Source: Escherichia phage Nernie
Sequence record: PP925835.1
DNA: 64,000 nucleotides
Direction: 5' to 3' (one strand)
Of this stretch, positions 14,230 to 14,445 are shown piece by piece; within the stretch, counting starts at the first letter, position 1, and every line of letters begins with the position of its first letter. A model generated the notes under the pieces. The model was given only the letters and a program-made list of their open reading frames with translations, was not told where the DNA came from and did not search any database. The translations under genes were made by a program, and so were the position numbers.

Positions 14230-14445
14230 AACACGAAATTGAACTTTTCATTTTTGATTTTTCTACAGAAAAAGGCAAAAAAACTTTAAATAAACTGGGG
14301 AATTTTTAAAAAATTGAAGTTTTCATTTTCAAAATCTGGATAGAAATACGTACAAAAACTTTAAATAATTTTGACCAAACTTGAACTTTTCATTTTCAAA
14401 ATTTGTATCCAAAAATCTGTAAAAACTTTAAATAATTTTATCCTT
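14230..14445. repeat. three ~66-77 bp direct repeats
   Basis: Each unit holds TTGAA(C/G)TTTTCATTTT ... AAAAACTTTAAATAA; units start near 14237, 14314 and 14380. Confidence 0.6.

Follow-up and report, generated by a model that had tools for sequence, protein, structure and literature searches.

What three tandem direct repeats of about 70 bp might do in a gene-free stretch of the Escherichia phage Nernie genome, immediately beside an array of palindromes, is the question that this locus raises. A preliminary description had proposed a candidate replication origin or regulatory iterons, in an architecture typical of an origin or a partition site. We analysed a window of 64 kb from this genome (64,000 nucleotides of record PP925835.1, to which all coordinates refer) and compared it with related phages. 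By its sequence the window is from a Justusliebigvirus (phi92-like, subfamily Stephanstirmvirinae), and positions 13000-16000 are 98% identical to Escherichia phages outra, JohannJBalmer, PaulScherrer and phi92. The three repeats are clearly real and functional, with their precise function lying among the candidate readings weighed below. The best explanation of the sequence is that they are single-copy DNA sites for a putative sequence-specific protein, two sites per unit.

The units lie on the plus strand at 14235-14297, 14310-14372 and 14377-14439. They are spaced 75 and 67 bp from start to start, and the first and third are 73% and 83% identical to the middle copy. All three came from a repeat and motif search, and TRF also returned units 2 and 3, with a period of 67 and a score of 183, making this the top-scoring tandem repeat of the window. 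As had been described, each unit contains an exact TTGAA(C/G)TTTTCATTTT (box A; 14239-14254, 14314-14329 and 14381-14396) and an exact AAAAACTTTAAATAA (box B; 14279-14293, 14354-14368 and 14421-14435), with the same offset of 40 bp from box A to box B in all three. The sequence TTGAASTTTTCATTTT was present at exactly three sites (14239, 14314 and 14381), where 0.56 chance matches would be expected with two mismatches, and AAAAACTTTAAATAA was exact at 14279, 14354 and 14421. Neither box was found elsewhere in the window with up to two mismatches, and when PaulScherrer loci L008, L028 and L029 were added to the window, both boxes were confined to a single locus in a genome of about 150 kb. The whole three-unit array is about 210 bp long and its repeats have a GC content of 21.8%. 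No similarity to plasmids or E. coli chromosomes was found, and neither was A-tract phasing or a 10-11 bp periodicity suggestive of intrinsic curvature in the array, where the periodicity peaked at 8.5 bp. Small repeats, TTTGAGATAA and AAATATCA, occur further on, after the three units.

The array lies directly to the right of the palindromes (14102-14216) and is flanked by two minus-strand gene blocks, in agreement with the preliminary description. The same description gave the interval as roughly 650 bp of AT-rich non-coding DNA. It is non-coding, but it measures 813 bp (13842-14654), or 1.53 kb (13124-14654) if a lineage-specific 88-aa plus-strand ORF is counted, and it is AT-rich only on its right side (about 14100-14654), while the left side (13500-14100) is unusually GC-rich. 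Several GenBank records of relatives label the stretch just 'repeat_region', and others give it doubtful small ORFs. The 88-aa ORF (13575..13841, plus strand; phi92 gp224 family, PHROG 19316) is confined to Stephanstirmvirinae, with no counterpart at the Vequintavirinae locus L023, and is therefore outside the core of the conserved module that begins directly downstream of it. It was rejected as a conserved binder of the array, having no Pfam or PDB relative and being absent from Vequintavirinae. The array's neighbours are this ORF, which has no Pfam match, a NADAR protein, a CapR/T5orf172 endonuclease-like protein and a generic AAA ATPase. No initiator family of the Rep or O type was detected among them, and neither Pfam scans nor the relatives' annotations yielded parA/parB-type genes.

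At least 80% of positions 14090-14660 is covered in 55 phage records. When eight Justusliebigvirus sequences were aligned, the 205 bp of the array (14235-14439) held six variable columns (14267; 14339 and 14341; 14408, 14410 and 14418), all of them within the three 24-bp spacers between boxes A and B and none in the boxes or the inter-unit linkers. The flank at 14446-14605 (160 bp) had 27 variable columns in the same alignment. By our own arithmetic, the chance that six random changes would all fall in the spacers is about (72/205)^6 = 0.002. Judged by this pattern, the boxes are under selection. Exactly three units in the same layout were found in phAPEC8 and tuntematon (Phapecoctavirus) and in Klebsiella phage phi1_175008 (Stephanstirmvirinae), where TTTAAATA and the A-run before it are invariant and the remainder has diverged.

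A scan of IMG/VR with the conserved RNA core of the module gave 14 further loci, which were compared alongside KaOmega and KPP-1. Taken together, these show that Vequintavirinae also have exactly three units at the same module position. The box has been replaced, with CGATCGAGAMC, preceded by GAATACGATCT and an A-rich stretch, instead of TTTAAATAA, and the units are not AT-rich. Unit spacings are 75+67 bp in Nernie, 84+58 bp in the Klebsiella Stephanstirmvirinae phage and 63+78, 67+75, 67+74 or 68+74 bp in Vequintavirinae. The middle unit thus floats in position, and the distance between the outer units is constant at 138-142 bp across the subfamilies. A new box sequence, combined with a unit number and a base-pair distance that have been kept, argues for a DNA-protein architecture rather than for an RNA or a promoter. 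Parts of the module are common to 361 phage records. The preliminary description had named absence or variability of the repeats in close relatives as grounds for giving up its proposal; the repeats are neither absent nor variable there, and with conserved boxes, free spacers, fixed geometry, a single copy and retention across two subfamilies, they behave as iterons would. In this sense the array is an iteron-like array in a phage control region, a known kind of element.

The array is the last element of a non-coding module that is kept in both subfamilies, in the order P1, ncRNA1, CpxR-consensus box, P2, hairpin, palindromes with an embedded P3, and the three units. P1 (13844..13872, plus strand) is a near-consensus sigma-70 promoter-like site (TTGACA-17-TATACT, 11/12) that is present in all lineages. 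It is followed by ncRNA1 (13880..13969, plus strand), a candidate structured non-coding RNA of about 90 nt whose core, ACGGCGWAAAGGCGGGGCTAAC, is invariant across the two subfamilies; the consensus fold has one compensatory pair (G-C in seven sequences, A-U in six) and a variable apical hairpin. Rfam searches at gathering and permissive thresholds, together with a tRNA scan, returned nothing credible and no family for ncRNA1 or the array. The CpxR box GTAAAGAAATGTAAA (13984..13998, plus strand), just upstream of P2, exactly matches GTAAA-N5-GTAAA, the CpxR~P consensus (PMC3158067). It is found in all 20 full modules, and its N5 varies. P2 (14014..14041, plus strand; TTGCTT-16-TATTCT, read from the sequence) is a weak promoter-like site whose Vequintavirinae counterparts score 9-10/12. 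A conserved element at 14050..14093 (plus strand), GCGAGGGG...CCCCUGCGC, would form a hairpin by pairing assigned by eye; its Certrevirus version is AGCGGG...CCCGCU.

Five Fur-box-like palindromes of the TGAGAATnATTATCA type occupy 14102..14216. Modules carry from two to five of them, and homologous arrays are found in Phapecoctavirus, Vequintavirinae and T5-like phages. Scored against the Fur consensus, which we take to be GATAATGATAATCATTATC / TGATAATnATTATCA, the window has 36 sites of at least 14/19 (best 17/19), compared with 6.6 in shuffles (maximum 16), and 20 of the 36 fall in its two large non-coding regions. The Fur 7-1-7 motif was matched 17 times against 1.36 expected. The dyads, previously called operator-like, match this host consensus rather than a phage operator and are putative Fur sites. 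The P3 candidate (14185..14214, plus strand; TTCTCA-18-TATCAT, 9/12) lies within the last two Fur-like boxes and reads into unit 1. Its equivalents are TTCTCA-18-GATAAT in KaOmega and, in L023, TTGACT-17-GATACT, which is stronger and has an extended -10. Plus-strand promoter-like sites, as consensus matches only, are aimed at the array in three lineages, with three such sites each in L023 and KaOmega. Downstream, a sequence scan found a weak terminator-like hairpin followed by U5 (14594..14630, plus strand), which would stop rightward transcripts ahead of the convergent NADAR gene. Inspection by eye found no IHF, sigma-32, sigma-E, H-NS or MotA motif conserved across units and lineages.

Neither strand of the array folded better than shuffled sequences (z -0.05 and +0.86), which led us to reject a folded RNA. 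Sigma-70 promoters in the units were likewise rejected: a scan of both strands found no conserved -35/-10 pair, and the sole match, TAGAAA-17-AATAAT, differs between units. With no RNA fold signal and no -35/-10 pairs in the units, a role at the level of DNA is the simplest reading, and the conservation pattern fits a putative protein-binding DNA array, not a promoter or a folded RNA. Other candidates were tried and discarded. The phAPEC8 'PHIRE promoters' are unrelated hairpins. We also rejected the repeats as the site of the genome termini, because the terminal repeat of the BME3 type maps to about 1660-2000 of the window. The features of a type III antitoxin-like or sponge repeat RNA were not found either: the array shows no excess folding, and downstream there is no ORF on either strand before the next gene block.

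The reading to which we give most weight, tentatively and as something short of probable, takes the array for an origin of replication that is fed by transcription, either the sole origin in this phage family or one among several. It draws on the strong single-copy repeats, the selection on the boxes, the conserved number and geometry of units, the promoter-like sites aimed at the array and the low stability of the adjoining duplex. Also in its favour, no origin is known for this group: the rV5 authors, who looked for one by skew analysis, saw only changes that follow the direction of transcription, and their paper notes a gp4-like primase-helicase and draws the region as an unexplained 'non-coding' box (PMC3606486). 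Our literature search found no transcriptome, origin mapping or functional study of the region. A duplex stability calculation put the weakest duplex of the locus at 14411..14510, which ranks third among 100-bp windows and is a candidate unwinding element. Of all 200-bp windows in the 64 kb, only one is less stable than 14351-14550, which lies 3.6 sd from the mean. We infer a scheme that runs from protein binding, with Fur/CpxR involvement, through transcriptional activation and DNA opening to origin function. A putative sequence-specific protein would bind the six boxes and wrap or bend the roughly 210 bp of the array. Transcription by host RNA polymerase from P1-P3 would enter the array and aid the opening of the AT-rich 14411-14510, and the T7-gp4-like primase-helicase of the phage could then be loaded at the opened DNA. 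Through Fur and CpxR, such an origin may be gated by host iron and envelope-stress signals.

Two kinds of known origin invite comparison. [quoted passage not shown] Like these, the array consists of direct repeats with a conserved core and constrained spacing that adjoin easily melted AT-rich DNA, and it occurs once per genome, in or beside non-coding DNA. It differs in that its units are 67-75 bp long with two boxes each, compared with iterons of 17-22 bp, and in having no recognisable cognate initiator gene adjacent to it and no DnaA or IHF sites. Transcription-activated origins are exemplified by the T7 primary origin (phi1.1A/B plus AT-rich DNA), T4 oriF and oriG (a promoter plus an unwinding element) and ColE1 RNA II. 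The module resembles them in the two or three tandem promoter-like sites that lead into an AT-rich, non-coding stretch of low stability, in the T7-gp4-like primase-helicase of the family and in the predicted structured RNA just upstream. However, the promoters here are of the host sigma-70 type, with Fur and CpxR site matches, and the T7 and T4 origins have no counterpart of the repeats.

Several observations weigh against an origin. There is no recognisable initiator gene. No DnaA box (TTATNCACA) was found in 13100-14700, and the window as a whole has two matches where five are expected by chance. The cumulative GC skew turns at about 19 kb, at the switch in gene orientation, with no inflection at 14.3 kb; skew in this phage tracks the direction of transcription. 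Fur and CpxR sites would be expected at regulated promoters more than at origins, the homologous palindromes of T5 are not at the mapped T5 origins, and the A-tract phasing that would give intrinsic curvature is missing from the array. Furthermore, a second non-coding region of the window (1550-2930), which contains the terminal repeat, is repeat-rich and even less stable, and it is an equally plausible site for an origin. The structural part of the preliminary description, iterons next to dyads and AT-rich DNA, is supported. Of the further features that would suit an origin, easily melted adjoining DNA and promoter-like sites reading in were found; an initiator gene, a DnaA box and a skew inflection were not.

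Rather unlikely, in our judgement, is an array without any role in replication. A phage early protein or a host nucleoid protein would bind its six boxes and control or insulate transcription where the small early genes of the terminal block give way to the next gene block, for example by silencing P1-P3 or by preventing read-through. The array does sit exactly between two gene blocks, promoter-like sites and the CpxR and Fur matches are immediately upstream, and the boxes are conserved and the spacers free. Among known systems, the P3 candidate inside two sites that match the Fur consensus at 15-16/19 recalls Fur-repressed enterobacterial promoters, in which Fur boxes overlap -35/-10. The likeness is limited: here at least five boxes stand in a row in phage DNA, more are present in the other non-coding region, and no iron-related gene lies downstream. 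Against a purely regulatory array, no ORF lies between the promoters that read into it and the weak terminator at 14594-14630, and a single copy with a span of 138-142 bp held across subfamilies is more elaborate than a typical operator. General binding of the H-NS type fails to explain the conservation, since the Vequintavirinae units are not AT-rich.

We consider it improbable that the units are the body of a Fur/CpxR-gated non-coding RNA, started from P3, P2 or P1 and ending near 14625, in which the repeated linear motifs would act as RNA, for instance by sponging an RNA-binding protein or sRNA. In three lineages a promoter-like site precedes unit 1 within about 10-30 bp; this site, the plus-strand terminator-like hairpin downstream and the lack of an ORF would all suit such a transcript. 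The corresponding part of L023 folds a little better than its shuffled versions (z -2.28). The Nernie array itself shows no such excess on either strand, however. In Vequintavirinae the conserved core, TCGATCGA, is palindromic as DNA and by itself cannot fold into an RNA hairpin, and a base-pair distance between outer units that stays constant despite complete replacement of the sequence is a signature of DNA geometry.

The closest described relative of the region is Repeat Region 3 of phage T5. BLAST aligned the palindrome array with that of T5-like phages at about 72% identity over roughly 110 bp (72.6% over about 118 bp for SSP1), and T5 9468-9637 carries the same motifs, annotated as 'direct repeat C' and 'palindromes E-I'. 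Beyond these palindromes the T5 sequence continues with a hairpin, the 7.9% nick and nine copies of 'direct repeat D', and all of this together makes up Repeat Region 3 (Wang 2005 annotation; Davison, bioRxiv 10.1101/866236). That region is untranslated, lies at the right end of the left terminal repeat and has the injection stop signal (bioRxiv 10.1101/866236). The T5 origins have been mapped near the genome centre, outside Repeat Region 3 (T5 literature). The two regions share their nature as large conserved non-coding DNA, homologous Fur-box-like palindromes followed by direct repeats, and a location beside early genes at about 6-8% of genome length from a terminus, which is a putative one here.

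The positions of the genome ends in this comparison come from relatives. A 342-bp terminal repeat has been reported for the congener BME3 (PMC12210895), and its homologue lies at about 1660-2000 of the window, placing the array some 12.3 kb (about 8% of the genome) away. For KPP-1 (Vequintavirinae) a DTR was reported at 116316-116829 (PMC9862379); the three-unit array is at 125311-125452, about 8.5 kb (about 6% of the genome) from it. In both phages the DNA between the putative terminus and the array holds small early genes. Across the group, with the Nernie termini placed from the congener, the reported terminal repeat is 342-514 bp long and 8-12 kb from the array.

The T5 parallel is striking but incomplete. 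The T5 repeats (GTGCAAATCCGACA, nine copies) bear no relation to ours, be it in sequence, number or size. Paired DnaA boxes (IRD'/IRC'), a 10-kb terminal repeat and A1/A2 are present in T5, and none of them was found here; T5 in turn is without the ncRNA, the CpxR box and the P1/P2 part. When every first-step-transfer protein of T5 was searched by tblastn against the window, PaulScherrer and KPP-1, nothing matched A1, A2 or dmp at E<=0.01. A speculative reading of low probability takes the parallel as common ancestry. In it, the rV5-, phAPEC8- and phi92-type myoviruses and the T5-type siphoviruses would share an ancient end-proximal control region, with Fur sites (plus a CpxR site and a small structured RNA in the myoviruses) followed by lineage-specific direct repeats, at 6-8% of the genome from a terminus. 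This region might serve as a checkpoint that reads host signals and ties an early infection step to the iron and envelope-stress status of the host. The step could be the firing of replication or a staged entry of DNA comparable to the first-step transfer of T5, and the three units would then be the docking platform for the phage protein that executes it.

Another reading, which we think quite doubtful, makes the array the counterpart of Repeat Region 3 itself, an end-proximal cis site for DNA entry (an injection pause or stop) or for another end-proximal process, with host proteins bound to palindromes and repeats. The palindromes are homologous to the DRC/palE-I array, which is followed in T5 too by direct repeats (the nine DRD copies). 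The T5 array is at the 7.9% nick, the shear point of first-step transfer, and the array here is about 8% from the putative terminus, with KPP-1 comparable in its distance of about 8.5 kb (about 6%) from the reported DTR and in the small early genes between. Set against this are the lack of A1, A2 or dmp homologues and of paired DnaA boxes, a terminal repeat that is short and 12 kb off, so that the array is not inside a long terminal repeat, the unrelated direct repeats, and the fact that the function of the T5 elements is itself unproven.

We regard as very unlikely a neutral product of tandem duplication or slippage, or a partition site of the plasmid kind. Duplications arise easily in AT-rich non-coding DNA, and some GenBank records say just 'repeat_region', but three units have been kept across two subfamilies with box-specific conservation. 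The partition site suggested in the preliminary description is set aside as very unlikely, the phage being virulent and without parAB; neither parA nor parB was found. Least credible are three tandem promoters, one per unit, either for host sigma-70 or of a class specific to the phage. T7 does have tandem early promoters, and the TTTAAATA within box B differs from the T4 late promoter TATAAATA at a single position, but the units lack a conserved -35/-10 pair, TTTAAATAA / TATAAATA does not recur upstream of other genes in the window and the Vequintavirinae box CGATCGAGAMC is not promoter-like. The rV5-type phages also have no gp33/45/55 homologues (PMC3606486).

The context of the array is more interesting than the repeats themselves: a module with an uncharacterised small RNA candidate, matches to the sites of two host regulators and an array of fixed span, shared in part with T5. 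Stephanstirmvirinae and Vequintavirinae are large groups that include therapeutic-candidate coliphages and Klebsiella phages, and neither has a known replication origin or any other defined cis-acting control site. The array is the best-defined single-copy candidate for an origin or control site, and its six exact boxes are clear mutational targets. If the origin reading is true, these phages would become open to replicon engineering and copy-number assays. Should the Fur and CpxR sites prove functional, this would be a rare case of a virulent phage whose non-coding control region has host regulators of iron and envelope stress wired into it. The palindromes in common, finally, would provide a new comparative handle on the long-unexplained Repeat Region 3 of T5.

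The near-consensus sigma-70 promoter P1 and the ~90-nt element that follows it, the candidate structured RNA ncRNA1, occupy positions 13844-13969 (+) of the window. The core of ncRNA1, ACGGCGWAAAGGCGGGGCTAAC, is invariant; the consensus fold contains a single compensatory pair, and its apical hairpin varies. No matching family was found in Rfam. This element, conserved in both the Stephanstirmvirinae and the Vequintavirinae, probably represents an early phage ncRNA, so far uncharacterised. In one IMG/VR locus (IMGVR_UViG_2974574029_000001) an HNH/AP2-like homing-endonuclease ORF interrupts the ncRNA1 gene; counted from the ncRNA1 core in match orientation, this arrangement lies ~130-800 nt downstream. 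After this ORF the promoter and the RNA occur again as a diverged copy, which restores the rest of the module, the conserved non-coding control region to which ncRNA1 belongs.

The CpxR-consensus box GTAAAGAAATGTAAA (13984-13998, +) fits the CpxR~P consensus GTAAA-N5-GTAAA without mismatch and has a weak promoter directly downstream. This box was present in all complete modules examined, where the half-sites are kept and the N5 spacer varies. Another GTAAA-N5-GTAAA match was observed in the Vequintavirinae phage KPP-1, at record position 116357 (-), within its reported terminal repeat.

ncRNA1 lies with an 88-aa ORF in a GC-rich island (13500-14100) of about 45-50% GC, versus 37% for the genome. 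The 88-aa ORF is restricted to Stephanstirmvirinae, and neither Pfam nor PDB relatives of it were found. Each of the small early genes left of the module has its own sigma-70-like promoter (13176-13463, -). In the phAPEC8 locus, GC hairpins with the conserved sequence GGGCGGCAATGGTGCCGCTC (locus positions 296-315, 1185-1204 and 1824-1843) are labelled 'PHIRE promoters' in the record; each of these hairpins is located 3' of a promoter, and they look more like 5'-leader hairpins than promoters. Right of the module (14655-17581, -) lie genes for a NADAR (YbiA-like) protein, for an endonuclease-like protein of 390 aa (CapR/T5orf172/zinc-finger) and for a generic AAA ATPase, the last annotated as 'FtsH-like' in relatives. 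Approximately two tandem copies of AAATATCAGG (14650-14668) overlap the minus-strand NADAR stop codon, and at the equivalent position the Vequintavirinae carry 2-4 copies of AAATATCA.

A second repeat-rich non-coding region (1550-2930) is where the window's DNA is least stable; it contains three copies of the 16-bp TATGAAATGATTACTA and two of the 18-bp TTAGATAGATTATAGTTA. Escherichia phage BME3 has an annotated direct terminal repeat of 342 bp; the homologous stretch of the window falls within this region, at ~1660-2000, and the physical genome ends therefore probably lie there.

In each of the window's two large non-coding regions there is a cluster of Fur-box-like palindromes (1787, 1982, 2841, 2899 and 14102-14216), the top match being 17/19 at 1983. 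Homologous arrays occur in Phapecoctavirus, Vequintavirinae and T5-like phages, the T5 counterpart being 'direct repeat C / palindromes E-I' of its Repeat Region 3. These palindromes could represent a Fur-sensing or Fur-titrating trait of virulent enterobacterial phages.
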